NCBI GenBank assembly: GCA_028693335.1
Contig: JAQUVR010000016.1
Span: 1-10,968, forward strand
Direction of reading: 5' to 3'
Length of the DNA: 10,968 bases
From: Candidatus Iainarchaeum sp.
Lineage (GTDB): Archaea > Iainarchaeota > Iainarchaeia > Iainarchaeales > CSSED10-239
The translations under genes were made by a program, and so were the position numbers. The notes under the pieces were generated by a model. The model was not told where the DNA came from, did no database searches, and worked only from the letters and a program-made list of their open reading frames with translations. This document shows, piece by piece, positions 1 to 10,968 of this stretch. The stretch's first letter is position 1, and the number at the start of each line of letters is the position of its first letter.

Positions 1-523
1 GGTCGTAAACCTCATCGAACAGGCAGTTCAGGCGGCCTTCCACATTGGATGTCTCGTTTATGTGACCCAAAGTCTTTCCCGAAGGATCGTCGTCAAGCAT
101 CGCCGGCCAGATCTCCATAGGCATCGGGTTGCCGGTCCAGCCCTCGTAGGCAGTCGTGACGAACGGGCCCCTGAACGCTGTCGCGTCTGTACCGTCAATG
201 TCCACCTGCGCGGAATCGAGATAGCCGCCGAACATGAGCGCTCCCAGCCAGATGAACTCCGTGCCCGTTCCGCCAGGCATCTCGCCCGAAACAGCGGTCT
301 TGCCCGTGCAGGGGTCTTTCAGACCGAGCCACGGCTCGCCAAAAAATCCCATGTTGGATGTGTTCAGCCATAACAGGCCCGCCCTGTGCACCCTGTATTC
401 CATCGTCGGCCGGAGAGCTTTTGACGGAGCAAGATCAAAGCTCCGCAAACCGTATGACGGATCCGGCGCCGGAAAGAGGCTTATTGCGAATATGAAGATC
501 AGTAAAAGATTTATCTTTATCAT
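1..523 (-). CDS. Secreted protein of unknown function, N-terminal part (gene continues past the left window edge)
   Basis: The minus-strand frame is open from ATG at 523-521 to base 1; it is absent from the ORF track only because no stop lies in the window. Hand translation begins MIKINLLLIFIFAISLFPAPDPSYGLRSFDLAPSK (signal-peptide-like) and continues ...EYRVHRAGLLWLNTSNMGFFGEPWLGLKDPCTGKTAVSGEMPGGTGTEFIWLGALMFGGYLDS.... It is GC-rich like the right flank. The + strand ORFs 62..373 and 234..536 are its antisense shadows. I recognise no family. Confidence 0.65.
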   Translation of the reverse strand, partial: MIKINLLLIFIFAISLFPAPDPSYGLRSFDLAPSKALRPTMEYRVHRAGLLWLNTSNMGFFGEPWLGLKDPCTGKTAVSGEMPGGTGTEFIWLGALMFGGYLDSAQVDIDGTDATAFRGPFVTTAYEGWTGNPMPMEIWPAMLDDDPSGKTLGHINETSNVEGRLNCLFDEVYD

Positions 524-624
524 GCCGATAATTTAAACATACACTGAAAAATATGCAATTCTATATTAAATTAAATGATGAAGACGGTCATGGTTAATGG
601 TGTATAGAAAATTGCTTTCTGTAA
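515..624. repeat. Repeat B, copy 1 (5' region and first three codons of the left flank gene)
   Basis: 515-572 matches 4983-5040 with one mismatch over 58 nt. Looser similarity with indels then runs through gacggtcatggttaat to attgctttctgtaa (611-624 vs 5077-5090). Confidence 0.85.
530..558 (-). promoter_or_regulatory. Candidate sigma70-like promoter for the left flank gene, implying a leaderless or near-leaderless mRNA
   Basis: The minus strand reads TTGCAT, 17 nt, TAAATT, atcggc, ATG. The -10 element ends 6 nt before the start codon and there is no Shine-Dalgarno sequence. An identical arrangement is present in repeat B copy 2. Confidence 0.3.
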
Positions 625-721
625 CCGTACGATATTCTCGTACACTTCGCATAAGGTTCTCATAAGTTCGCATTATTTTTGCATAATAGGTTTTAGTGCT
701 CATAGCTATTAAATCACTTAA

Positions 722-808
722 AACTCTCTTAAATTATTTTCTATTTATTTAAGAATTAGCTACAAACTCTCTTAAACTCTCTTAAAATTCGCTAAAAACT
801 CCCTTAAT
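722..808. repeat. Iteron-like direct repeats AACTCTCTTAAA (three exact copies, one degenerate)
   Basis: Exact copies lie at 722-733, 765-776 and 775-786, with a degenerate copy AACTCCCTTAAT at 797-808. Start-to-start spacings of 43, 10 and 22 nt are close to whole helical turns. They sit in a 590-bp region with no convincing ORF. Confidence 0.45.
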
Positions 809-1214
809 TAATCTTTTATTGCATTTCAATATAGATAAAACATAATTTAGCAATAGTAATATTTTCGGTAGAATAATTAAAAGAAAGTGGAATCGACTCA
901 GAAAGTGGGTTTTACTAACGATTGGTGAGGCTCGGCGCGATTTGTCCGGGGTGGCTACAGATATGTAGGTGCTACCTAATGTAGCGTTGCGATCCGTAAT
1001 CAATACATTTTGGGATCATATAAATACAGCATCGGTTTCAGGATCGCCAGTACGAAATAACGGCAATGGCAAAAAGCAAACTGTTATCTCTCTGTTTCTT
1101 TATACAATTTAACAAAATTATGTGTCAAAAAACAGTGTACACTACAGTTAGGAAAAACGAATCTTCATCGGGAGTATTTTTTGCGTTATTATCTGTGATA
1201 AAATCATTAGTTAC

Positions 1215-2204
1215 CTATAATTTCTTATATTTTGCTATAATTTCTTTTAAAGCTTTAGTTTGTGCGTCATTCAATGTCATTTCATAAGCATATTTTCCAA
1301 CAAATCTTACATCAATTTTATCTGATTCAGCAATTTTAAAGATAGATTTATCTAAATTATCGATACTATTATCAGACCACTCTTTTACACCGTTGCCAGA
1401 GGTATCAGTTTGTTTTTCAGGATAGTCACAATTAATTTCAATCTGTATATTATCAGCATGTACTATTACTTTGTCATAAAACATCCAGTTATCATTGCTA
1501 TATTGAGTTCTTAACCTTAGAAATTTGCTACCAGATTTATTTTTCACTATATAGAATTCAAAAGTTAATAAAGCCCTACCTGAATGTTGACAAGTGAGTC
1601 TTTTTGTCTCATAAAAAATACAGGATTGCATCTTATCTTCAGTTTCAGAAATAAATTCTTCAGATTCATATTCGTAAAGATATTTGTTATATATATTTCT
1701 TAATTTGATTGAATCATTTTTATTCAAAAATAAATTATCGAAATCATCTTGGATGCTGGAAATCTTTTTACCTAAAGATAGTGATTTAGTTTTATTAAGG
1801 GTTGATTTTAAATTACTATTAGAAATTTTATCAAGTTCACTGATTTTATTGTTACTATTTTTTACTAAATCACTGTTGGGGTAAAATGTAGTAATCATGT
1901 TAAATAACAAAAACGCTTTCTTCAATTGGTTTAATTTCAGGAATTCTATTCCTTTTTTATAATAGTATTCAGGTGTTTGGGTAGCTTCATTGTATCTGAC
2001 CTGTAATTCATTCTTTTCTTTTGTGCAATTCTCAATCTTACTAGATAAATCATTGTGTTGAGTTTTTAATTCTTCAATTTCCTGTAAAAGTTTAACTTTT
2101 TCACTTTCAGAGTTACTATATTTAGAATTGAGCTCAGTGAATTCTCTTTTTGAAACACAGCTAATTAGGAATAAAGCAAATGTTAATAGTATTATTTTTT
2201 TCAT
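1215..2204 (-). CDS. Lipoprotein with a coiled-coil N-terminal half, function unknown
   Basis: 329-aa ORF. The N-terminus MKKIILLTFALFLISC has a lipobox-like LISC, and GAGG lies 8 nt upstream of the ATG. The first ~70 residues after the Cys are heptad-like and rich in E/K/L/Q. I cannot name a family for the C-terminal half. Confidence 0.75.
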   Translation of the reverse strand: MKKIILLTFALFLISCVSKREFTELNSKYSNSESEKVKLLQEIEELKTQHNDLSSKIENCTKEKNELQVRYNEATQTPEYYYKKGIEFLKLNQLKKAFLLFNMITTFYPNSDLVKNSNNKISELDKISNSNLKSTLNKTKSLSLGKKISSIQDDFDNLFLNKNDSIKLRNIYNKYLYEYESEEFISETEDKMQSCIFYETKRLTCQHSGRALLTFEFYIVKNKSGSKFLRLRTQYSNDNWMFYDKVIVHADNIQIEINCDYPEKQTDTSGNGVKEWSDNSIDNLDKSIFKIAESDKIDVRFVGKYAYEMTLNDAQTKALKEIIAKYKKL

Positions 2205-2398
2205 TTTTTACAACCTCGCTATTTAAATTAAAAAACACATATTGCCTTATCTGTCATGGTAAATGCCCACTAGGTAAAGATAACAAGGGATAGGGTATCA
2301 TGTCAATGTTCTCTGTCTATAGTGATTAGTTTTATGATAGATTATTGATTTTTCCATTTTGCTGTCTCGAAAGTGTTCAATAAATGTCTAAAGAAAAT

Positions 2399-3760
2399 TT
2401 AATCTGGAAATTCATTTCCTTTTTTTCTATTTAATTTTAAATCCTTTGATTTTAAGAATCCAAATTGTGCGTTTAAAGAGTCGTAGTATTCTTCGTCTTC
2501 TTTTGTCCAGTGTGAGCAGTCTAAGTATATAAAATCTTCAGAAGTTCCTTCGTTTAATTTTGGTGGTTCAGTAGCTATTCCAATTATAGAATGCAATTGC
2601 TTAAATTTATTCTTGGTTACCCCACAAGCTATTTCAAGTAATTGTTGCCTATAAGGACGATATTCGTTGTCGTAGTCGGAAATAGGATCAATCTTTAATT
2701 GGAGAAATAGATATGCCCTGTTTTTGTGAAACGATTCTATGTAAGTTAATAAACGAACAAAGGGTTGTTGCGATTGAGGAAAATTATTTATTGCACGCAC
2801 TATTCTATCTGAAAGTTCCCTTCTATGAAAACGTGGCTCCATTGCCATATAATATATTGCATTTTTATTGTTAAATATAGATGCACCACGAGTGATACCA
2901 TCGAGGGCATATTGGCACGTTTTCTGAATTAATCCATCCCAAACGTAAGAAATTTCATCAGATTTCTTTTTCCTTTTAAAAATATCACTTTGTTCGAAAT
3001 CTTTCCATTCACCTTCACCGATAATAATCATATTTACTTTTTTATCCTTGTAACCTATGAAATGAGTATGATTCGATTCATCGTAATTTAACATGTAATG
3101 TGCGAGTAAATCTTCTTCACCACAGTATATTAAAGCCTCATAGTTATTAATTGCTGATATTTTTGCCTCCAAGTATCTGGAAAAGTCATAAAATGTATCG
3201 AGTTCTTTAAATATCAATTCAAGGTTTTCGCTATCAAAAATATGTACAGGATTGTTTTTATCTAAAGTTATTAAAAATGGAAAAGGAATATTGTCAGATT
3301 TATCACCATAAATTATAGCCAAACTACCAAAAACATTTTCATCAGAAAATTCCCTACATGCATCTTTAGCTCCATGAGCGATTACAATTTTGTGTACAAT
3401 CATATTATTCGTATCAATTTTTATAGGGAAAGGAGATTTTAATTCCACATCAAGAAATATTTTAGCATTTCTTCTTATATATTTTTCAGCACCATGTGCA
3501 GTTTTAATTTGCATGTCAATTGCTTTTTTTTTCCATCTTTCCCAGTTTGTTATTGTGTCACCTTCTTTTTTTAATGATAAATTCTCTCTATCATAAAAAA
3601 TAAATACATGATTGCCGAAAATAGCCAGTAAATCACACAACTCTTTTTTATCATCTTTGATTGGATTGGGGTAACTCCATAATTTCAAGAAAGTATTTTC
3701 ACACAATTTAGCTAGAAGATTTTCCGTAGGTGTTACACCTTCTGATTTCGTGATCTTCAT
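2399..3760 (-). CDS. Hypothetical cytoplasmic protein (453 aa), family not recognised
   Basis: Long ORF with GGAG 5 nt upstream of the ATG and no signal peptide or TM segment. The N-terminal segment LCENTFLKLWSYPNPIKDDKKELCDLLAIFGNHVFIFYDRE loosely recalls the strand core of restriction-endonuclease-like folds, but I cannot identify catalytic residues. Confidence 0.8.
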   Translation of the reverse strand: MKITKSEGVTPTENLLAKLCENTFLKLWSYPNPIKDDKKELCDLLAIFGNHVFIFYDRENLSLKKEGDTITNWERWKKKAIDMQIKTAHGAEKYIRRNAKIFLDVELKSPFPIKIDTNNMIVHKIVIAHGAKDACREFSDENVFGSLAIIYGDKSDNIPFPFLITLDKNNPVHIFDSENLELIFKELDTFYDFSRYLEAKISAINNYEALIYCGEEDLLAHYMLNYDESNHTHFIGYKDKKVNMIIIGEGEWKDFEQSDIFKRKKKSDEISYVWDGLIQKTCQYALDGITRGASIFNNKNAIYYMAMEPRFHRRELSDRIVRAINNFPQSQQPFVRLLTYIESFHKNRAYLFLQLKIDPISDYDNEYRPYRQQLLEIACGVTKNKFKQLHSIIGIATEPPKLNEGTSEDFIYLDCSHWTKEDEEYYDSLNAQFGFLKSKDLKLNRKKGNEFPD

Positions 3761-3806
3761 GAAATCTCCGCATTGTTTTTTAAATGATGCTCAACAAATA
3801 CTAGTT

Positions 3807-4280
3807 CTACATATCTAAACTTTCAAGTTCCCAAGAATCGCCGTTACTTTTTAGAACACAAATATAATACGTTCGGATATTTGCGCCAAAACTATTTTCA
3901 GAATCAACATAAGCTGATACCTTGTATTTATTGTTTCCTAAATTTGATACTTTCGCGTCCAAAACAGAACAGAAATCTGCGGTAGCCGGTGCTTTTAAGT
4001 TTTGTTCAACAAATCGCTGGCTCATCACAAAAGCCATTCCGCTATCATCTGAATTACGACGAGAACTGCTTGATTTCTGTTCAGGTGGAGGTCTATATGA
4101 TGATGACCCGCCATATTTGGCTGAAAAAGAAAATAATTTGACAAGCAAATATACGAGTATAATCAAAACTAAATAATTTAAGCAACTGCCCTTTTTTTTG
4201 GGAATATAACCGCAATTGGGGCAGGATTTAGCTTTTGTGCTAATATCTTTTCCGCATTCTTTGCATTTTCTTAATGCCAC
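3807..4280 (-). CDS. Membrane-anchored zinc-ribbon protein with a small extracytoplasmic C-terminal domain
   Basis: GTG start 4 nt after AGGAGG. It has a CKEC-x10-CPNC zinc ribbon, a hydrophobic helix LNYLVLIILVYLLVKLF, an S/P-rich linker and a C-terminal globular part of about 80 aa (...YKVSAYVDSENSFGANIRTYYICV...). Confidence 0.8.
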   Translation of the reverse strand: MALRKCKECGKDISTKAKSCPNCGYIPKKKGSCLNYLVLIILVYLLVKLFSFSAKYGGSSSYRPPPEQKSSSSRRNSDDSGMAFVMSQRFVEQNLKAPATADFCSVLDAKVSNLGNNKYKVSAYVDSENSFGANIRTYYICVLKSNGDSWELESLDM

Positions 4281-4288
4281 AAAACCTC

Positions 4289-4816
4289 CTATTCATTTGC
4301 CCTTTCAGCCAACATTCTGCCTGTAATAATGCCAAGTGTAATAGCAATGACAACTCCTGCAACAATTTTAAAATTATCATTGCCCTCTCGGTCTTTTATA
4401 TTTTCTTCTTTAAAAGCAGAACTAGAGTTGATTTTTATGTTAGGATTTAATGTCTTGAAAAATTCCGCTTGGCAACTATAACAAGAATTAAGCATATCGG
4501 GTCTACGTTCGTCAATTATGTTTACAATATCAGCCCCCAAATAGCTTGCTTCTTCTCGTAACATTCTAATCGCATCGGATTCTCTACAACCAGCGGTAAA
4601 GGCATTGTCTCTTAATTTGATTTCTCTAATTTTCTCATAGGCATTAGAATTAAAGCTTGAGAATTTCACAATAGATATTTCTGCTGTCGATTTTATATCT
4701 TGTGAGTTCTGTTCTTTTTCGTAGCCCGATCGTTTTACTGTATAAGATGTACAGCCTGAAATAAAGAAAACATTCAGGTATAATACGATCATCAGAAACA
4801 CACTACTCTTTAACAT
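4289..4816 (-). CDS. Lipoprotein with a C-terminal TM helix, function unknown
   Basis: The N-terminus MLKSSVFLMIVLYLNVFFISGC has a lipobox-like ISGC, and the C-terminal stretch IVAGVVIAITLGIITG is hydrophobic. The Cys-containing middle (AGCRESDAIRMLREEASYLGADIVNII...SCYSCQAEF) loosely recalls RcsF/DUF4156-type lipoproteins. Its TAG stop overlaps the AGGAGG of the next gene. Confidence 0.75.
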   Translation of the reverse strand: MLKSSVFLMIVLYLNVFFISGCTSYTVKRSGYEKEQNSQDIKSTAEISIVKFSSFNSNAYEKIREIKLRDNAFTAGCRESDAIRMLREEASYLGADIVNIIDERRPDMLNSCYSCQAEFFKTLNPNIKINSSSAFKEENIKDREGNDNFKIVAGVVIAITLGIITGRMLAERANE

Positions 4817-4935
4817 TTTTATCTCTCATGTTTAAACTAACAGCAACTCCTCTGTTTTGAACAAGTTTTTCGCATACTGTACGGACAAACGTCATTTTGT
4901 TTTTTTGTATATATGAATTATCCGTCTGCCATTTT

Positions 4936-4988
4936 AAAAATTATGATAATTTAATTATGATGTCAACGAGTTTCTTATTTTTCTTTAT
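4936..4988. repeat. Repeat A, short copy (promoter segment only) ending in the junction core CTTTAT
   Basis: aaaaattatgataatttaattatgatgtcaacgagtttcttatttttctttat differs by one base each from 7453-7505 and 10663-10715. Confidence 0.9.
4938..4966 (-). promoter_or_regulatory. Candidate promoter (TTGACA, 17 nt, TAATTT) for the module I operon
   Basis: The minus strand reads TTGACAtcataattaaattatcaTAATTT, about 120 nt upstream of the 4816 start. The same sequence is conserved in three copies in the window. Confidence 0.5.
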
Positions 4989-5090
4989 CATGCCGATAAT
5001 TTAAACATACGCTGAAAAATATGCAATTCTATATTAAATTATTTGGAGACGGTCATGGTTAATACGGCAAATTATCATTGCTTTCTGTAA
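4983..5090. repeat. Repeat B, copy 2 (internal; fused on its left to repeat A and on its right to the Bro-N pseudogene)
   Basis: See copy 1. This copy retains the ATG ATA AAG of the left flank gene, but here it opens only a 16-codon chimeric ORF (MIKKNKKLVDIIIKLS). Confidence 0.85.
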
Positions 5091-5506
5091 ATAGGTTTTC
5101 ATAGCTCTGTCGAATGAAAGTTCAGGATCTCCAGTCTCTTCGATTCTTTCATAACCCGTTTTAGCAAGCCAAAGCTTAAAAGGTTCCGCCCTTTGGCGAA
5201 GGAATTGACTGAACTACACGCAATAAATCTTCTGTTGAGAAGCAATCTGTAGCATAAAACTTGCCGTCACTAGCCTCAAATTTCAGTTGTACGATTTTTT
5301 CGTACACCTCACTTCCTTCTTTTTTGAGCTTCTTCTTTAAGTCGCTCCAATAACGTTTGGAAATAGATGAATCAGTCAGAATCTCTATCATATCAATAAT
5401 TGAAAAATACCAGAGTTCATTATCTCCGTCCCAAAATCGCCGGACTTGTTTTTGGTTGTAGCACAGATAATTTGTGTCTTATTACTTTTTTCTCTGCTGT
5501 TGTCAT
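5081..5506 (-). pseudogene. Bro-N/DinD-like pseudogene (3'-truncated, at least two frame disruptions)
   Basis: Nucleotide- and protein-level paralogue of the N-terminal ~135 codons of 8234..9124. AAGGAGG precedes the ATG at 5506-5504, but the homologous frame (NQKQVRRFWDGDNELWYFSIIDMIEIL...) is offset by one base from that ATG. An extra base near 5188-5191 ends the tracked ORF at PSPKGGTF*, and homology resumes in another frame (AEPFKLWLAKTGYERIEETGDPELSFDRAMKTYLQK). The gene stops at the junction with repeat B. Confidence 0.85.
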
Positions 5507-5632
5507 TTTATTCCCTCCTTTTCTGAAATATAATAAATCATTTTTCGTTAGGAAAGAAGCTTAAGCAGACATATCATTTTTTATTTTTCCTCTTATTTAA
5601 TTAACCGCACTCTCTCGTTAACCTTGCCCATA

Positions 5633-5704
5633 ACGGTCATGAAAAAAAGATCACAAGCAAACATAACACGGTAAAGTCATATAGCCAATGTTAGCGGTTG
5701 TGTG
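5633..5704. repeat. Repeat E, copy 1 (~70 bp, between the cargo genes and the Bro-N copy)
   Basis: It shares acggtcatg, a similar cacaag...cat segment, an exact 11-mer tagccaatgtt and ggttgt with 9145-9220. By eye roughly two thirds of positions are identical, with a 4-nt length difference. Confidence 0.6.
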
Positions 5705-5707
5705 TAA

Positions 5708-6499
5708 TTATTCAATTTTCATTCGAGAATTATTCTTTAGAAGTACTGCTATGTCATTCCTTTTTTTTATTATTACAGTATCAAAAATATCTTGGATAAA
5801 AGGAGCGATTAAATATTGAGAATTTTCTCCAGGTGATATTCCATTGTCTAAAGCATCAATATAATCACTTGACATCATATAATGGTCATTTAAATAGAAT
5901 ACATAAGAAAAATGTTGAATAAAAATATCATTTAAATCAGAAGAAAACAAATCTAACATTTTAAGTCTTACAGGATTATAGATCTCGTTATCATTAGAAA
6001 GTACATTATGAAAAAAATTGTAATGAGTATTATCGTTGCACCTTTCTCTAATCTTTTTGTACCTTTTGTCTTTATCAAGTAGTAAAGTAATCGGTTTCAA
6101 CAGACAAGAATTTTTTATATAGCTTGAAATTATCCTATATTCGGGAATGGTTTCAATTCCCTCTATCCACTTGTCAATCTGTTTAACTATAAGATTATCG
6201 ATACTGTAATTATTTTTTAGATAAAGATTTAAGTAGACATTTATAAATGTGGAATCATAATATTTTCTTAGAAGAGCATACGCATCATTAATACGACCTT
6301 TTAATAAAACATCCCGTATTGAATCAAGCGTTCCATGCATCGATGAGAAAATATGAGCATCAAGGTTGTTTTCGATCTTAGTTCCTAGTAATATAAAATA
6401 CATGATAGAGTCAGATAATGAATTGTAAAAATCTGCAATCTCTTTCAACTCAGAGAATACTATGTGCCCAGTATAATTTTTATTTATAAAATTATTCAT
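5708..6499 (-). CDS. Hypothetical cytoplasmic protein (263 aa) with a possible HEPN-like R-x5-H motif
   Basis: The ATG overlaps the upstream stop (ATGA at 6496-6499). No signal peptide. Motif KKIRERCNDNTHYN (R153-x5-H159, nt 6023-6043) and an earlier helix GRINDAYALLRKYYDS recall HEPN/Abi-type proteins. This is motif-level only. Confidence 0.7.
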   Translation of the reverse strand: MNNFINKNYTGHIVFSELKEIADFYNSLSDSIMYFILLGTKIENNLDAHIFSSMHGTLDSIRDVLLKGRINDAYALLRKYYDSTFINVYLNLYLKNNYSIDNLIVKQIDKWIEGIETIPEYRIISSYIKNSCLLKPITLLLDKDKRYKKIRERCNDNTHYNFFHNVLSNDNEIYNPVRLKMLDLFSSDLNDIFIQHFSYVFYLNDHYMMSSDYIDALDNGISPGENSQYLIAPFIQDIFDTVIIKKRNDIAVLLKNNSRMKIE

Positions 6500-7212
6500 T
6501 TTGAATTTTGATAGCTAGTCAATATTCCATTTTCAAAGTATAAATATAAATTACTATAAACCCATTGTTCATGGATACCCCAATCACCGACAGTTTTATT
6601 TATATTATTGGGGTTACCTAAACTTATTGAGGCCATTTCAACCGTCATTCCCACCCAGTAATAACCATTAAATAAGTCCTCGCCGATATTTTTCCCGAAT
6701 TTATCCGTTAAAAACTTTTTGTACTCTTGTTTCTTCTTTTTATTAAAATTGATCTCATTTTCTTGCTTTTCTTTAATTATATTTTCTCTGAAAAGTATAA
6801 TATCTTCTGTTTCGGATAAAATAGACTCAAAAACATAACCGATATGTTCGTCTTTTTTTACAAGCCATGAATTTTCTTTAACAAATTTTTCGTTAAAACA
6901 GTAATCTAGCAAAATTAAAGTATCATTTATTTCAGTCTTGAATAAAATATCTGAGTACATTGAATTTTCTTTTCTAATCTCACCTTTTGATTTGCAAACA
7001 ACTTTTATAGAATTTTTCCCTTTCAACTCAATTAGTTTTTTTTGCATAATGTATTTATCCAAGTCATTTTTTACTATCTCTAATGAATCTGTTTTTGACT
7101 TTATTAGATTTTCTAATCGCAATCTATCTATTTTTAAATTCGCGATATTAGAATCTATACTTTGACATAGCAGAGCACTTTGAATAACGAATAATACAAT
7201 AATGAACTTCAC
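6496..7212 (-). CDS. Secreted protein with a coiled-coil segment and a C-terminal BamE/SmpA_OmlA-like motif
   Basis: GTG start 5 nt after AGGAGG. Signal peptide MKFIIVLFVIQSALLCQS. The C-terminus GYYWVGMTVEMASISLGNPNNINKTVGDWGIHEQWVYSNLYLYFENGILTSYQ fits the GMT...LG.P...E.W.Y...YL.F.NG.L pattern of small BamE-like domains. Confidence 0.75.
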   Translation of the reverse strand: MKFIIVLFVIQSALLCQSIDSNIANLKIDRLRLENLIKSKTDSLEIVKNDLDKYIMQKKLIELKGKNSIKVVCKSKGEIRKENSMYSDILFKTEINDTLILLDYCFNEKFVKENSWLVKKDEHIGYVFESILSETEDIILFRENIIKEKQENEINFNKKKKQEYKKFLTDKFGKNIGEDLFNGYYWVGMTVEMASISLGNPNNINKTVGDWGIHEQWVYSNLYLYFENGILTSYQNSK

Positions 7213-7262
7213 ATGATCCTCCTATAAAAAACAATTTAAATTACACATTTCCGCTAACGAGC

Positions 7263-7288
7263 GGCTAAGCGAATGGTTTCGTTTAGCC
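7263..7288 (+). other. Conserved 11-bp-stem hairpin in the repeated leader
   Basis: ggctaagcgaa-tggt-ttcgtttagcc. All pairs are Watson-Crick except one G-T, which is a G-U wobble only if read as + strand RNA. It is conserved at 10524-10547, with a degenerate second copy at about 7313-7337. Confidence 0.45.
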
Positions 7289-7454
7289 GTGACATTTGCG
7301 CCTGTTTGCGGAAGCTAAGTGAATGGTTTCGTTAAGACTGCATGTTTGAACCTATTTCAAGAAGCTATATGCCACAGCGGTGCTTTTTTCTTCTGAATGT
7401 GAAAGAGCCTCATGTGTTTACCTTGTTCGATCTGTATTCTTATCTCAGTCAGAA

Positions 7455-7483
7455 AAATTATGATAATTTAATTATGATGTCAA
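7455..7483 (-). promoter_or_regulatory. Candidate promoter A (TTGACA, 17 nt, TAATTT) upstream of the module II cargo
   Basis: Identical hexamers and spacer to 4938-4966 and 10665-10693, followed by a ~240-nt leader before the GTG at 7212. Confidence 0.5.
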
Positions 7484-7516
7484 CGAGTTTCTTGTTTTTC
7501 TTTATTGAAAGATATA

Positions 7517-7573
7517 TTACATTAGTCCGTCAGCGAGGATCTTGAGGCCGATGAGGATCAATACAATGTCGTT
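7517..7573 (-). pseudogene. Displaced remnant of the mntP 3' end (last ~17 codons plus stop)
   Basis: The reverse complement reads DIVLILIGLKILADGLM*, against GGIVLILIGLKILADGLM* in the intact gene. There is no upstream coding continuation. Confidence 0.9.
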
Positions 7574-7584
7574 CGAGTAATATA

Positions 7585-7613
7585 TTGATTTAAGCGAAAA
7601 AAATTTGTATATT
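7585..7613 (+). promoter_or_regulatory. Candidate promoter for the + strand antitoxin-like/DUF2442 genes
   Basis: TTGATT, 17 nt, TATATT, ending 45 nt upstream of the ATG at 7659. Confidence 0.4.
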
Positions 7614-7658
7614 GAGATCAAGTAAAGAAAAGAAGCTTATTTATAAAGAAGTGATTAT

Positions 7659-7853
7659 ATGAAACTGCATACTCAGATCATAGAAAAAGAAGGAAAGAAA
7701 GAATTTGTTGTAATACCTGTCAAAGAATTCAAGATATTAGAAGAAATGATAGAAGATTACGAAGACCTTAGAGACTTAAGAGAAGCAAAAGCAAGCTCAA
7801 AAGGCGAAAAGGCAGTTCCTATTAAAAAGGTAATAAAAAGCCTGAAACTGTAA
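7659..7853 (+). CDS. Phd/YefM- or RelB-like type II antitoxin-like small protein
   Basis: 64 aa. KEFVVIPVKEFKILEEMIEDYEDLRDLREAKASSKGEKAVPIKKV matches the common short-antitoxin pattern (a strand, then an acidic EDxEDL helix, then a C-terminal tail). Confidence 0.6.
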   Translation: MKLHTQIIEKEGKKEFVVIPVKEFKILEEMIEDYEDLRDLREAKASSKGEKAVPIKKVIKSLKL

Positions 7854-7867
7854 TTAATATAGCCTAG

Positions 7868-7957
7868 ATGGAAATTCATAAAGAAGACCTGCAGGCTGAT
7901 TGGGATTTAGCAGTTAATGGTAAAACATCATTTCTGATAACGAGGTTAGACCAATGA
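7868..7957 (+). CDS. 29-codon ORF between the antitoxin-like gene and DUF2442 (doubtful)
   Basis: MEIHKEDLQADWDLAVNGKTSFLITRLDQ. Its TGA overlaps the next ATG (ATGA at 7954-7957). It sits where a toxin gene would be expected but is too short, and I do not recognise it. Confidence 0.2.
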   Translation: MEIHKEDLQADWDLAVNGKTSFLITRLDQ

Positions 7958-8193
7958 GAATAAAAAAAATTGAAGCTATGTCAAATTATATCCTGAGGAT
8001 CGAATCTGAGGGAGGTCAGATCGGAGATTTTGATGTTAAGCCTTACTTGGCTTATGAAGCTTTTATTTATTTAAAAGACATTGACCATTTCATGCGCGTC
8101 AGAAACGGCGGATATTACATAGAGTGGGACTGCGGTGCTGATCTTTCTGCCGATACTATTGAAGCAAAATGGAAAGTGCTCGTATCGGAATAA
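7954..8193 (+). CDS. DUF2442-family small protein
   Basis: 79 aa, with GAGG 7 nt upstream. The pattern ...NYILRIESEGGQIGDFDVKPYL...F..LKD...F..V...G..IEW.CGADLSADTI is typical of DUF2442. Confidence 0.65.
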   Translation: MRIKKIEAMSNYILRIESEGGQIGDFDVKPYLAYEAFIYLKDIDHFMRVRNGGYYIEWDCGADLSADTIEAKWKVLVSE

Positions 8194-8233
8194 CTAGCTC
8201 AATTGCTGTAAATGATCACTGCTTTCTGCAAAA

Positions 8234-9124
8234 TTATTCTTCGTCATCTTTTTCAGTCTTATCTAAAAAGTTATTTTCCTTACCGGTTAACAAGGTCTTT
8301 GCATTTTCCGGGCTTACTATACTTTCACCTGTCTGCTTTTCGATTTCTATTCTTGCCTGCTTTGCCGCAAATCCGCCCTTTTTTGCAACTTCAACATTTT
8401 CATGAAAACCATCCGGTTTCTGCTTTTTAGATATTTCTGAAGTCGAAGCTTCCGCAAGCATATTTAAAACCAGTTCAAGGTTAGTCATATTGTCTCTCAA
8501 GTTTTCTTTCTTGAGATTCTTCAGCTTTTTATATTGCTTTACCGATTTATCTGACCACGCTTTTGTAATCTCATCTGTCAAAATAGCATAATCCTGCTCT
8601 TTCTTCATTCCTCTTTCTTTCCACTCATCAGTAAGCTCTTTCCTGACTTCAATACTCTTTAACCTCTGATTGATCCATTCCTTAGAATACCCTTTCTGTA
8701 AATAGGTTTTCATAGCTCTGTCGAATGAAAGTTCAGGATCTTCAATTTCGTCTATTCTTTCTCTTCCAACTTGAGCTAACCATAACTTGAACGGTTCTGC
8801 TTTCGGAGACGGAACAGACTGAATAAGCCTGAACAGTTGCTCGGTATCAGCGACATCGGTAAGCCTCATTTTGCCGTCAGCAGCCATCATTTTCAAACTG
8901 TGACAATTTGTCACGGTTTCATTTCCCTCTTTTTTCAACCGTTCTTTCAATTTACGCCAATATGCACCTGAGTCAATACTTTCAGTAAGCACTTCGATCA
9001 CATCAATAATAGAAAAATACCACTGTTCATTATCTTCGTCCCAGTGGCGACGGACTTGTTTTTGATTGAATAAGATTATTGAGTTTGAGTTTTTCATTGT
9101 ATGTTTAAGCTCCTTTATTAACAT
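8234..9124 (-). CDS. Bro-N domain / DinD-like (phage antirepressor-like) protein
   Basis: WYFSIIDVIEVLTES...YWRKLKERLKKEG...LKMMAADGKMRLTDVADTEQLFRLIQSVPSPKAEPFKLWLAQVGRERIDE is the widespread Bro-N-type N-terminal module. The C-terminal half (...NLELVLNMLAEASTSEISKK...AKKGGFAAKQARIEIEKQTG) resembles the DinD C-terminal region. The track start at 9145 is a TTG. I prefer the first ATG at 9124 (AGGGGTGAAA upstream); 9097 is an alternative. Confidence 0.8.
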   Translation of the reverse strand: MLIKELKHTMKNSNSIILFNQKQVRRHWDEDNEQWYFSIIDVIEVLTESIDSGAYWRKLKERLKKEGNETVTNCHSLKMMAADGKMRLTDVADTEQLFRLIQSVPSPKAEPFKLWLAQVGRERIDEIEDPELSFDRAMKTYLQKGYSKEWINQRLKSIEVRKELTDEWKERGMKKEQDYAILTDEITKAWSDKSVKQYKKLKNLKKENLRDNMTNLELVLNMLAEASTSEISKKQKPDGFHENVEVAKKGGFAAKQARIEIEKQTGESIVSPENAKTLLTGKENNFLDKTEKDDEE

Positions 9125-9144
9125 TTTCACCCCTAAAGCCTTCA

Positions 9145-9220
9145 ACGGTCATGGCTAAAAGCACCACACAAGTCACAATGAACCAGTCAGTTTCATGTAG
9201 CCAATGTTGTCTGGTTGTTG
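9145..9220. repeat. Repeat E, copy 2
   Basis: See copy 1. It sits between the stop of the FGE-domain gene and the start of the intact Bro-N gene. Confidence 0.6.
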
Positions 9221-9270
9221 TTATAAATATCGTTAATTGCCTAAGCTACACAAGTTAGAATGAAATACTA

Positions 9271-10431
9271 TCATGGTGTTCTCACAATCCGAAAGCCCAA
9301 GTCGTAAGTGCTGCTGTTCGGGCTGAAGTATTTGTAGCGATAAGCAACACGACAGGTGCTGGTACTACTGGCCCAACCACCACCATGTAGAACACGATTA
9401 GTCCCATTAGTAGGTCCATAAGGGTCAGTCACTGTTCCCAGATCATTACAAGTAGTGTAATAACTGCTTCCATACCAATCCCAACACCATTCATATAAAT
9501 TTCCAGTCATGTCATAAATTTCAAGCTGATTAGGTGCTTTTGTACCAGTGGGTTTTGAACCGTAGGGATTATTATTCTCGGTATACCAAGCAACTGTACT
9601 AACTGTATCGCTACCGCTGTAACGATAATCGTCAGTATGATGACTACCACCTCTCGCAGCATACTCCCACTCTGCTTCTGTAGGTAGTCTGTAGCCATTG
9701 GCAGACCAGTTACATTCTACAGCATTCCATGTAGAGTCTGAACTAGTCGGCACCGTTCCCCAGATATCTGGATCTGTTGAACTATTTATAGTATAACACG
9801 GAGTGATGCCTTCGGCTATGCTCCTTTTATTACAATAAACCATTATTTCATACCAACATACAGAGTAAGCCGGATAATTGTCACCCGTTCCGTAAGAACT
9901 CCAATCCTTAGCAGGCATATAAATAGTCCATTCAGACTGTGTTACCTCGCATACTCCCATGTAAAAATCACTAACTGTCACACTATGTAAAGGTGTTTCA
10001 TCAATAGAACCTTCGTTAAAATGATCACCCATCTGGTATGTACCTCCTTGAACAAAGACCATCTCAAGGGAGTCTGTTACAGTTATTACTTTGCTATCTG
10101 TATCTGAATCCTGCCCATCGCTAACTGTAACCGTAATTGTATAAGTATAGTTGGTATTTGGAGCTGTCCAAACTGTACTTGAACCAGTTGTTGTAGAAAG
10201 ATCACCACCTGTCGATATCCAGCTGTAGGTCAAACTATCTCCATCATCGTCTGTTGCGCTACAGCTTAAATCTACTGTTCCACCTTGCTGAACAGATGTC
10301 GCCGATGCTGTCATACTGTTAATCAACGGAGTATTGTTTGTCGGTTCTGTACCTCCGTCATCATCAGAGCATGACAAAAAAATCATTCCTAGTAGCATAA
10401 AAGTAAGTAAGATAGGTATCCATTTTTTCAT
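9271..10431 (-). CDS. Lipoprotein with a PKD-like Ig domain and a C-terminal formylglycine-generating-enzyme (SUMF1/FGE-sulfatase, C-type-lectin fold) domain
   Basis: Preferred start is the ATG at 10431, 6 nt after AAGGAG, giving MKKWIPILLTFMLLGMIFLSC (lipobox). PKD-like segment: SATDDDGDSLTYSWISTGGDL...WTAPNTNYTYTITVTVSDGQDSD. FGE-domain hallmarks: MVFVQGGTYQMGD, ETPLHSVTVSDFYMGVCEVTQSEW, GYRLPTEAEWEYAARGG, YDMTGNLYEWCWDWY, RVLHGGGW and LGFRIVR. Confidence 0.85.
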   Translation of the reverse strand: MKKWIPILLTFMLLGMIFLSCSDDDGGTEPTNNTPLINSMTASATSVQQGGTVDLSCSATDDDGDSLTYSWISTGGDLSTTTGSSTVWTAPNTNYTYTITVTVSDGQDSDTDSKVITVTDSLEMVFVQGGTYQMGDHFNEGSIDETPLHSVTVSDFYMGVCEVTQSEWTIYMPAKDWSSYGTGDNYPAYSVCWYEIMVYCNKRSIAEGITPCYTINSSTDPDIWGTVPTSSDSTWNAVECNWSANGYRLPTEAEWEYAARGGSHHTDDYRYSGSDTVSTVAWYTENNNPYGSKPTGTKAPNQLEIYDMTGNLYEWCWDWYGSSYYTTCNDLGTVTDPYGPTNGTNRVLHGGGWASSTSTCRVAYRYKYFSPNSSTYDLGFRIVRTP

Positions 10432-10523
10432 TTTGTTCTCCTTAGATTTAAATATCTTAGTTAAGCTTAGGCACATCTTTTATCCATAATATTTTGTAAC
10501 AATTGCACCTGACGTGCGGCTAA

Positions 10524-10547
10524 GCTAAGCGAATGGTTTCGTTTAGC
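10524..10547 (+). other. Conserved leader hairpin, second copy (10-bp stem)
   Basis: gctaagcgaa-tggt-ttcgtttagc, with the same G-T position as in copy 1. Confidence 0.4.
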
Positions 10548-10664
10548 CTCGACGTTTGAACCTATTTCAAGAAGCTATACGCCACAGCGGTGCTTTTTTC
10601 TACTGTATGCGAAAGAGCCTCATGAGTTTACCGTGTTCGATCTTTATTATTATCTCAGTCAGAA

Positions 10665-10693
10665 AAATTATGATAATTTAATTATGATGTCAA
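10665..10693 (-). promoter_or_regulatory. Candidate promoter A (TTGACA, 17 nt, TAATTT) upstream of the FGE-domain gene
   Basis: Starts 33 nt downstream of the mntP stop on the minus strand and is followed by a leader of about 230 nt. Confidence 0.5.
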
Positions 10694-10726
10694 CGGGTTT
10701 CTTATTTTTCTTTATCTGAAGATAAA

Positions 10727-10968
10727 TTACATTAGTCCGTCAGCGAGGATCTTGAGGCCGATGAGGATGAGTACAATGCCGCCGACGAGTTCGGCGCTCT
10801 GTCCCAGCCTTCTGCCGGCGCGCTTGCCGATGTTGACGCCGACGAGAGATATGACGAAGGTGGTGCATGCGATCAGGACGGCGGGATAGTATATCTCAAC
10901 ATCAAGAATAAGTATGCTTAAGCCGGCAGCGAGGGCATCTATGCTGGTCGCTACAGCCATAACGAGCA
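10727..10968 (-). CDS. mntP: Manganese efflux pump MntP, C-terminal part (gene continues past the right window edge)
   Basis: AVATSIDALAAGLS...GVNIGKRAGRRLGQSAELVGGIVLILIGLKIL matches the second repeat of the MntP/DUF204 family (compare E. coli MntP AVATSIDAMAVG...[20 protein letters not shown]). The frame stays open upstream of the tracked Met to base 10968. GC-rich. Confidence 0.85.
   Translation of the reverse strand, partial: LVMAVATSIDALAAGLSILILDVEIYYPAVLIACTTFVISLVGVNIGKRAGRRLGQSAELVGGIVLILIGLKILADGLM

Follow-up and report, generated by a model that had tools for sequence, protein, structure and literature searches.

The locus described here raises the question of how two neighbouring gene modules come to share their ends while carrying unrelated genes in between. 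It occupies most of a stretch of DNA of 10,968 nt, referred to below as the window, which is an entire contig of a metagenome-assembled genome (MAG) filed as a DPANN archaeon, 'Candidatus ainarchaeum sp.'; its proteins are MDD3244760-65. An initial annotation, made from the sequence alone, had described the two modules and likened them to the moron or defence/counter-defence hotspots of phages and satellites. On balance, we think it probable that the region 523-10726 is instead an integron-type cassette array, similar to attC clusters that have no integrase (CALIN), from a Candidatus Delongbacteria-like genome and with two array heads in tandem. All coordinates refer to the whole stretch, and features lie on the minus strand unless marked otherwise.

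Read along the minus strand, the window starts with the 3' part of mntP, which is followed by an array head (head A, copy A_III), a gene for a lipoprotein with PKD and FGE-sulfatase domains, a copy of a repeat named E (E_III), an intact Bro-N gene, a tail motif and a DUF2442/Phd-like gene pair. This pair is oppositely oriented and is the only exception to the common orientation of the genes in and flanking the array. Then come the second head (A_II), genes for proteins of 238 and 263 aa, E_II, a Bro-N pseudogene and a hybrid junction (X_I/A_I) with a third promoter core. The last part comprises genes for a 175-aa lipoprotein, a zinc-ribbon protein and a 453-aa protein, a further E copy (E'), the gene of a 329-aa lipoprotein, a non-coding stretch of about 0.6 kb, a remnant (X_0) and the flank gene. 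The variable island is 10.2 kb long with 33% GC, and the genes flanking it have 55-57% GC.

The two copies of head A (10496-10778 and 7289-7568) are 89.8% identical over 284 nt (E=8e-101). E_III and E_II (about 9225-9144 and 5709-5632, about 80 nt) show gapped similarity with a Smith-Waterman score of 37, compared with 18.1 +/- 2.3 (maximum 28) in 500 shuffles, and their nhmmer E-values are 1e-27 and 6e-21. By blastp, the cargo proteins of the two modules have no detectable mutual similarity. The description of two minus-strand modules with common head, E and Bro-N but unrelated cargo was thus confirmed, with one restriction: the Bro-N gene assigned to both modules is intact in module III, whereas in module II it is a pseudogene with two frameshifts and a 3' deletion.

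The good copies of E have a common frame, AAC-ATT-GGCTA...(variable)...TAGCC-ATGACC-GTT, and are 69-76 nt in length. An attC site consists of R''(RYYYAAC), a spacer, L'', a variable loop, L', a spacer and R'(GTTRRRY), altogether 57-141 nt; only the AAC and GTT triplets are conserved, and the crossover occurs at G|TT (PMC5027507). The AAC and GTT triplets, the GGCTA/TAGCC L stem and spacers of 3 and 6 nt are present in E_III and in L011_E2, a copy from a related contig described below, and partly in E_II. E_III (9140-9212) reads AGACAAC-ATT-GGCTA...TAGCC-ATGACC-G|TTGAAG, with the predicted crossover between 9146 and 9145. E_II (5628-5696) reads CGCTAAC-ATT-GGCTA...CATGACC-G|TTATGG, with the G at 5634 and a degenerate L' half.

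A hidden Markov model of E gave six best matches in the window, with E-values of 3e-19, 4e-19, 5e-16, 0.012, 0.068 and 2.1, all on the minus strand and between co-directional genes. Among them, E' (2245-2314) is a decayed copy between the gene for the 453-aa protein and that for the 329-aa lipoprotein, in which GTT has changed to GAT; its alignment scores are 50-52, and a model built without E' still found it at E=0.007. An E 3' remnant lies at 5046-5068 in X_I (nhmmer E=0.012). X_0 (579-624), at the array end, combines the tail motif with the E 3' remnant ATTAACCATGACC|GTC at 582-600 (E=0.068); it is located directly upstream of the promoter region of the flank gene, and a complete E occupies the equivalent position in the related contig L098. 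A weak E-like 3' remnant, E'' (GCCATTGCC|GTT at 1059-1081), follows the 329-aa lipoprotein gene, and its nhmmer E-value of 2.1 is not significant. By the clustering rule for CALINs, two or more attC sites must share a strand and be spaced by under 4 kb (PMC4889954). The E sites are all on one strand with all gaps below 4 kb, and would form such a cluster only if E is accepted as attC.

In integron arrays the sites are chimeric: what stands 3' of G|TT is already part of the following cassette and has its pairing partner in the R'' at the far end of that cassette (PMC4889954). Complementarity between the two ends of one cassette was also observed here. Cassette C3 (5634-7258) carries the 238-aa exported protein and the 263-aa protein and ends in E_II; its start, GTTAGCGGAAATGTGTAATT, and AATTACACACAACCGCTAAC, the sequence immediately ahead of E_II, are complementary with a score of 34, which was reached by 1 of 2000 shuffles. 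For the cassette of L011 the score was 40, reached by none of 2000 shuffles. Cassette C1 (9146-10513) carries the PKD and FGE-sulfatase lipoprotein and ends in E_III, and its 5' boundary is ambiguous between 10513 and 10496; here the complementarity of the 5' start to the 5' flank of E_III scored 24, reached by 49 of 2000 shuffles. When ends of different cassettes were paired, the complementarity was not significant. The 8-bp R boxes are perfectly paired in both L011 (CCTTCAAC/GTTGAAGG) and C3 (CCGCTAAC/GTTAGCGG); the two pairs differ at three positions, and the changes are compensatory on both sides.

The same relation was seen by folding. Each of three cassette 3' ends was joined to six candidate 5' starts and the resulting junctions were folded; the cognate junction was the most stable in every row of the matrix (-21.7, -13.6 and -31.8 kcal/mol), and the others ranged from -9.2 to -14.2 kcal/mol. 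For C1, the cognate value of -21.7 kcal/mol compares with -11.9 to -14.1 kcal/mol for the non-cognate junctions, and both candidate 5' boundaries fold about equally well.

The position of the crossover could be compared with a strain-level relative of the window, L098, an 11.4-kb Ca. Delongbacteria contig whose Bro-N is at least 90% identical to that of the window. The E_III crossover had been predicted at about 9146 before L098 was retrieved. L098 carries a full mntP followed by the same promoter; its positions 2888-3199 match window 10968-10657 (mntP and promoter) with 98.7% identity. After 59 unrelated nt, which have no homology to the leader of head A, L098 3259-4331 matches window 9145-8072 with 96% identity and contains Bro-N, the tail and a DUF2442 remnant, so that in L098 the promoter is directly followed by Bro-N with no cargo in between. 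The homology resumes exactly at 9145, at the TT of ATGACCG|TTGAAGGCTTTAGGGG, which is the predicted E_III crossover; this is one event only. L098 continues with 3.3 kb of unrelated DNA encoding an Amidase_6 protein and with a complete E, and its positions 7685-8274 match window 593-1 (95%). The slot between mntP with its promoter and the flank gene is therefore 4.5 kb in L098 and 10.2 kb in the window, and the units that the window has in addition, the leader with its hairpin and the FGE cassette, are located at the head, after the promoter and ahead of the Bro-N cassette; in integrons, this is the place of insertion of new cassettes. Between the Bro-N/DUF2442 remnant and the Amidase_6 gene, L098 also has a strong hairpin that resembles a terminator (4400-4470, ATTCATCAGCCTTGC..GCAAGGCTGATGAATTTTT).

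Two further contigs show other states of the locus. L002 is identical to the window through E_III and diverges at 9240 into another upstream neighbour, which makes it a third state. L011, from activated sludge and with a Bro-N 83% identical to that of the window, has E, a fn3/LTD lipoprotein gene with a GmrSD gene, Bro-N and again E; its two E copies thus stand before and after a three-gene unit. The earlier proposals that E marks the boundary of the variable slot and that the same anchors occur elsewhere with different content are therefore borne out, the former by the break of L098/window homology exactly at the 3' edge of E, and the latter by the arrangements in L098, L002 and L011.

Head A is the other feature shared by the modules. 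A_III (10496-10778) contains the last 52 nt of mntP, a promoter-like core (10663-10716), a leader of about 150 nt and a hairpin, GGCTAAACGAAACCATTCGCTTAGC(TTAGC)C at 10518-10548, which is followed by GCAC|GTC. In A_II (7252-7568) the promoter core is at 7453-7506. Besides the leader, this copy has two hairpins, of which hp1 (7313-7338) is degenerate and hp2 (7263-7288) is followed by GCTC-G|TTAGCG, with the G at 7258. The leader hairpin, GGCTAAACGAAACCATTCGCTTAGCC followed by 4 nt and GT(T/C), has the L-box, spacer and GTT layout of E with a short loop. Within 7263-7367, A_II has two hairpin units 50 nt apart, compared with one in A_III, and the second unit could be an 'empty' mini-cassette consisting of a recombination site only.

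The promoter core of 53-54 nt occurs in three copies that are 96-98% identical (10663-10716, 7453-7506 and 4936-4989). A strict sigma-70 scan did not flag promoter A, which reads TTGACA-N17-TAATTT; by our own reading of the letters, its spacing resembles the Bacteroidetes type, TTG-N20-TAATTTTT (compare TAnnTTTG). Within the core, ATCATAATT-A-AATTATCAT forms an imperfect palindrome. On its 3' side the promoter is continued by three different sequences, one in A_III and A_II, one in A_I and one in L098, which identifies the 3' edge of the promoter as a recombination breakpoint. A role of the leader as a riboswitch or small RNA was considered and dropped: it has no Rfam match, and a stretch of about 230 nt has no significant structure (z = -1.4 and -0.3).

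The third promoter core belongs to the hybrid junction X_I/A_I (4936-5090), which contains the tail motif, the E 3' remnant ATTAACCATGACC|GTC, a copy of the region upstream of the flank gene and the promoter core (4936-4989). In this junction the copied upstream region and the first 5 codons of the flank gene are joined to the promoter core at a 13-nt match, GATAAAGAAAAAT; the A_I hybrid is a further recombinant. The sequences A_III, A_II, A_I and A_0 have in common only GATAAAGA(A/T)AAAT. In database searches a 26-mer of the promoter had no match in IMG/VR, none in JGI metagenomes and one in GTDB genomes, the latter being the same sequence (L002); the patterns for the leader, E and the hairpin had no match in IMG/VR.

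These features can be accommodated in the following mechanism. Each cassette would end in an attC-like site, either repeat E or the GGCTA...TAGCC hairpin at the leader end. In single-stranded form this site would adopt a fold with an R-box, an unpaired spacer, an L-box and a variable loop, and it would be cut at G|TT by a tyrosine recombinase whose gene lies elsewhere. Cassettes would leave the array as circles and return by preference to its head, just downstream of the promoter; the fixed outward promoter A beside mntP would express the head cassettes. The junction predicted for a C3 circle is ...TTTTTTTCATGACCG|TTAGCGGAAATGTGTAATT, that for a C1 circle is ...TAGCCATGACCG|TCAGGTGCAATTG or |TTACAAAATATT, and that for an empty site would be the leader hairpin joined to TTGAAGGCTTTAGGGG.

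Each module would accordingly consist of an array head (mntP 3' fragment, promoter, leader and hairpin site), a different cassette, an E site and a Bro-N cassette. A displaced fragment of mntP, its last 52 nt, heads A_II at 7517-7568, from which we infer that an mntP gene once stood immediately upstream of module II. The junction upstream of the fragment (7568/7569) is illegitimate, its upstream side is the Phd promoter region, and it is also present in L002, an independent contig. That the two modules arose by simple tandem duplication was rejected, because their shared parts have diverged to different degrees (head A is about 90% identical, Bro-N about 80% and E about 70%) and because the Bro-N pseudogene is closer to the L011 allele (89.4%) than to the intact gene beside it. 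Capture of a second version of the locus is the most economical explanation: the second head and what follows it would come from the version of another lineage, captured behind the first head via the illegitimate join 7568/7569. Such a capture would need this one illegitimate join and one join in shared sequence, and the captured copy, including its Bro-N, would later have decayed.

A reading of the shared ends as the two ends of one mobile module was not supported; one is a duplicated array head and the other an independently acquired Bro-N cassette, the latter because the pseudogene is 89% identical in nucleotide sequence to the L011 Bro-N and about 80% identical to the intact copy in the window. 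The phage or satellite hotspot proposed in the initial annotation was not supported either. No phage structural, replication or integrase genes were found in the window or in L098, the four anchor patterns had no match in IMG/VR, and the locus occupies a fixed chromosomal slot between mntP and the secreted-protein gene.

A number of observations weigh against an integron-type array. No Phage_integrase or other recombinase match was obtained for any open reading frame of the window, or among the called genes of the 11.4-kb L098; since neither contig of about 11 kb has an integrase, we do not classify the locus as a complete integron; both are short enough that an intI may lie further away. E is called attC-like from its layout and a comparison of boxes, and these boxes depart from the consensus, with GTTRRRG in place of GTTRRRY in R', GTC at three sites, and R'' boxes that agree with RYYYAAC at only 5-6 of 7 positions. 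The kinship of the leader hairpin with E is one of layout only (nhmmer E=5.6). Cognate complementarity was not found for C2, C4 and C5, which are composite, rearranged or decayed units. Where it is present, it extends far past a 7-bp R box, in L011 in three blocks out to about 150 nt, which is atypical for attC, and it is also atypical that several cassettes are multi-gene with long 5' leaders. Some breakpoints lie off the E sites, namely the promoter 3' end (10663, 10657), 9240 (L002), 8072 (L098) and 7568, so ordinary recombination must also shape the locus. Moreover, the evidence comes from two closely related strains and L011.

The complementarity in L011 includes a perfect 21-nt inverted repeat, AATGGGATTATCTTTCTGCAA at 162-182 and TTGCAGAAAGATAATCCCATT at 5051-5071, about 110-150 nt inside each cassette end; it contains the tail motif otherwise found after Bro-N. 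A transposon with terminal inverted repeats was rejected as an explanation of such ends, because these repeats differ in sequence between cassettes and no common transposase could recognise them.

Other explanations of the locus were weighed against the cassette array. One possibility, to which we give some but limited credence, is an ordinary hypervariable island, a hotspot for defence or surface genes between core genes, in which DNA taken up from related strains was recombined both homologously and illegitimately. E, the hairpin and promoter A would then be no more than regulatory or terminator sequences held in common, which offer local homology, and there would be no system dedicated to site-specific exchange. 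This would fit the breakpoints at microhomologies or unremarkable positions (the GATAAAGAAAAAT join, the TT[A/G]CAGAAAG deletion, 7568, 8072 and 9240), the absence of a recombinase gene nearby, and the Bro-N and 263-aa families, which are typical of defence islands and restriction-modification (R-M) loci. However, it leaves unexplained why the 5' end of every clean cassette is complementary to its own E flank, with sequences that differ from cassette to cassette, why the predicted G|TT is exactly where L098 and the window have their breakpoint, and why a conserved AAC...GTT frame surrounds the GGCTA/TAGCC stem. A distinct cassette system, with long cassette-specific foldback ends of 20-150 nt around a conserved core of about 60 nt, we regard as unlikely. 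Such a system would exchange its cassettes at one fixed chromosomal site of expression, downstream of mntP, with either a recombinase other than IntI or one encoded far away, and entire array heads could be copied into the array as well.

The displaced mntP fragment at 7517-7568 heads module II as in tandem island arrays, and the arm combinations of A_III, A_II, A_I and A_0 resemble attL, attP-like and attR sites. Both features would suit a tandem accretion of integrase-less elements or satellites, mobilised in trans, at an att site over the mntP 3' end, with the duplicated mntP 3' end and promoter as the att identity segment; this comes close to the view of the initial annotation. We nevertheless hold this to be decidedly unlikely: A_II would be a second attL-type (B-O-P') site, which is not a product of simple serial integration, the identity segment would be 284 nt long at only 90% identity, and the modules have no integrase, excisionase, replication or phage genes. 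In addition, the anchors are absent from IMG/VR, the variable part of L098 begins after the promoter and not inside mntP, and the E sites are left unaccounted for. Cassette inversion, by which inverted repeats at the ends would flip the cargo relative to promoter A and make surface proteins phase-variable, seems to us very improbable. Inverted repeats of 20-27 nt do flank the cargo in C3 and L011, the repeat of 21 nt in L011 is perfect, and much of the cargo is exported or surface protein; but each cassette has a single orientation in all contigs, no invertase gene is present, and neither the directly repeated E cores beside the inverted repeats nor the presence and absence of cassettes between strains with G|TT breakpoints would be explained.

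An assembly chimera, in which alleles of co-existing strains were concatenated via the shared 53-nt promoter repeat, we scarcely credit at all, even though the window is a whole MAG contig and its three promoter cores are nearly identical. Unitigs of Logan (SRR22315505) cover most of what independent contigs leave of the window at 100% identity; they break at repeats, and independent contig cover is missing only for 4966-5611. The diagnostic junctions are present in the independent assemblies L002, L004 and L098, which makes a chimeric assembly unlikely: L002 covers 6599-9240, spanning Bro-N, the DUF2442/Phd-like pair, the mntP fragment, A_II and the 238-aa gene, L004 covers 1537-5008, spanning X_I, the promoter and the 175-aa gene and including the X_I/A_I junction, and L098 covers both ends. 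Furthermore, the mntP fragment is fused to AT-rich non-mntP DNA, which could not result from joining two intact alleles.

Compared with integron and CALIN arrays (PMC4889954), the proposed cassette array has in common that co-oriented, unrelated and mostly promoter-less genes are each accompanied on the 3' side by an imperfect palindromic site of about 70 nt with an AAC...GTT frame, an L-box stem, unpaired spacers and a G|TT crossover. The sites are likewise chimeric in situ and self-complementary once the two ends of a cassette are joined, the sites within the array are similar to each other, new cassettes are promoter-proximal, the GC content is below that of the host, and the cargo includes oppositely oriented toxin-antitoxin-like, defence-type and exported-protein genes. 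As in most CALINs in MAGs, no integrase is in view (PMC9668308). The locus differs from such arrays in that no intI was found, that the R' and R'' boxes deviate from GTTRRRY and RYYYAAC, that cassette-specific complementarity extends 20-150 nt past the R box, and that several cassettes have 2-3 genes and reach 3-5 kb; in addition, an array head with a piece of a core gene is duplicated inside the array, and the head abuts mntP and not intI/attI. With the defence-island hotspots of E. coli and Pseudomonas (PMC10121019, PMC10250203) it shares fixed core flanks, strain-specific defence-type content and low GC. Those hotspots, however, usually acquire their content through mobile elements with an integrase or through homologous exchange of the flanks, and they have no repeated structured site per gene and no cassette-specific end complementarity.

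The intact Bro-N family gene (8234-9097, ATG at 9097) encodes 287 aa and matches Pfam Bro-N (4e-12) and phrog_15286 (1e-121). It also matches the PADLOC candidate defence family PDC-S13 end to end (PDLC04920, 3e-136); no paper mentioning PDC-S13 was found in the literature, and a PDB sequence search with Bro-N gave nothing. At least 396 relatives with 66-90% amino acid identity were found in metagenomes, compared with only 3 distant relatives (56-57% identical) in viral contigs. The family is thus unusually conserved, but in 80 metagenome loci the neighbours of these relatives are hypervariable and almost never the same. Frequent ones are a RadC/Dam-like methyltransferase upstream together with a PLD-type nuclease downstream (gaps of 0-16 nt), or HsdM/HsdS; the gene upstream is DUF2971 in contig L010 and GmrSD in L011. 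The window Bro-N thus resembles the Bro-N/PDC-S13 genes of R-M operons (PDLC04920) in its end-to-end match and its hypervariable, defence-type neighbours, but it is not located between a methyltransferase and a nuclease and forms a cassette-like unit starting at the E crossover.

The Bro-N pseudogene (5081-5466) has two frameshifts and has lost its 3' half. It matches residues 8-152 of the intact protein in two frames with 56-65% amino acid identity (82-93% nucleotide identity in blocks), and it is 89.4% identical to the L011 Bro-N over 378 nt. The deletion lies between TT[A/G]CAGAAAG direct repeats, one internal (TTTACAGAAAG) and one in the tail motif (TTTGCAGAAAG). The tail motif itself, TTTGCAGAAAGCAGTGATCATTT, is 23 nt long, lies just 3' of the intact Bro-N gene (8210-8232) and recurs at 5074-5090 and 608-624; for these three matches on the minus strand, the chance expectation is 0.07. 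Only L010 and L011, out of 78 loci, also have it after Bro-N, and it is therefore not general for the Bro-N family.

The remaining cargo is diverse. The coding sequence of the C1 lipoprotein (9271-10431) matches FGE-sulfatase (1.6e-45) and PKD (1e-6) in Pfam and was also recognised by NCBIfam, in agreement with its first description. On the plus strand, Pfam identified a Phd/RelB-like gene (7659-7853) and a DUF2442 gene (7954-8193), of which only a 3' remnant is kept in L098, after Bro-N. Judged from the Pfam matches, this pair looks like a toxin-antitoxin module. Toxin-antitoxin cassettes are often inverted relative to the array.

In C3, the 238-aa exported protein (6496-7212) has a signal sequence and its gene overlaps the 263-aa gene by 4 nt. 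The label 'BamE-like' given to it was not supported, as it has no Pfam and no PDB sequence match and hits only an unannotated PHROG. The 263-aa protein (5708-6499) has a confident all-alpha AF2 model (pLDDT 88) and belongs to an unannotated family of at least 946 homologues with 56-66% identity in Bacteroidota, Atribacteria, Omnitrophica and others, which stand alone beside type I and type III R-M genes. A block R-x-R-C-N-x3-H, which includes R153-x5-H159, is invariant in 42 homologues. The motif once called 'HEPN-like' is thus real as a conserved block; HEPN proteins have a four-helix fold with a catalytic Rx4-6H motif, but the AF2 model has no PDB fold match at E<=0.001, and the protein has no Pfam, PADLOC or NCBIfam match, so that a HEPN identity is no more than possible. 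We consider it a candidate single-gene defence protein.

Further along the array, the 175-aa lipoprotein gene (4289-4816) is the first gene after promoter copy I and is co-directional with the gene for a 157-aa zinc-ribbon membrane protein (3807-4280). The 453-aa protein (2399-3760) matches phrog_18195 (2e-45) with no other match, and a PDB sequence search gave nothing; by eye, its N-terminus (..KKELCDLLAIFGNHVFIF..) resembles a PD-(D/E)xK/NERD-type nuclease motif. The 329-aa lipoprotein gene (1215-2204) lies between E' and E''. Counting as defence-type the Bro-N gene (as PDC-S13), the 263-aa family beside R-M genes and GmrSD in L011, the expectation that part of the cargo would have a defence flavour was supported. 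Defence cassettes in integrons have been documented (bioRxiv 10.1101/2024.07.02.601719; PMC12614218), and by analogy the present combination of exported proteins and lipoproteins, an inverted toxin-antitoxin-like pair and defence-type genes is typical of cassette arrays.

The stretch 3' of the 329-aa lipoprotein gene (625-1215, about 0.6 kb) is non-coding, with a GC-richer patch at about 900-1000 and tandem AGAGAGTTT(T)AAG repeats at 721-798. It has no Rfam match, no tRNA and no Bro-N remnant, and may be a decayed cassette. No known RNA was found anywhere in the window (Rfam at E<=1; ARAGORN).

The flanks of the locus comprise mntP, a tRNA-U5-methyltransferase and the large secreted-protein gene. 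The conserved left boundary is the 3' part of mntP (10727-10968, 55% GC; Pfam Mntp, 1.2e-22), which encodes a manganese efflux pump; a search with this fragment returned no relative above 59% identity. The conserved right boundary is the 5' part of the secreted-protein gene (1-523, 57% GC, start ATG at 523-521), whose product has 1064 aa in L098. Homologues of this flank gene with 47-63% identity adjoin TonB-dependent receptors and were of no help in locating an empty site. The nearest named relative of the flank protein is from Delongbacteria, and the DNA of the window is 96-99.9% identical to DNA in two Ca. Delongbacteria MAGs (L002 and L098). The window also has genes of bacterial type, such as those for lipoproteins with a lipobox and for a GldK-like FGE domain. 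Bacterial-type lipoproteins together with the matches to Delongbacteria make an archaeal origin unlikely, and the contig is probably mis-binned. A probably mis-binned contig under the label of a DPANN archaeon matters for claims of archaeal integrons or of bacterial-type lipoproteins in archaea.

Even if the integron reading is wrong, the cassette-specific complementarity of ends and the exact breakpoint need a mechanism. If it is true, the locus would provide exact cassette boundaries for several widespread families, namely the 263-aa R-x-R-C-N-x3-H family, Bro-N/PDC-S13 and phrog_18195, and would show how two array heads come to stack in tandem. An uncultivated lineage of the FCB group, Ca. 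Delongbacteria, would then maintain an integron-style store of genes, for surface lipoproteins and of defence type, at a fixed position in the chromosome that is provided with a promoter, with recombination sites that stretch the usual definition of attC.

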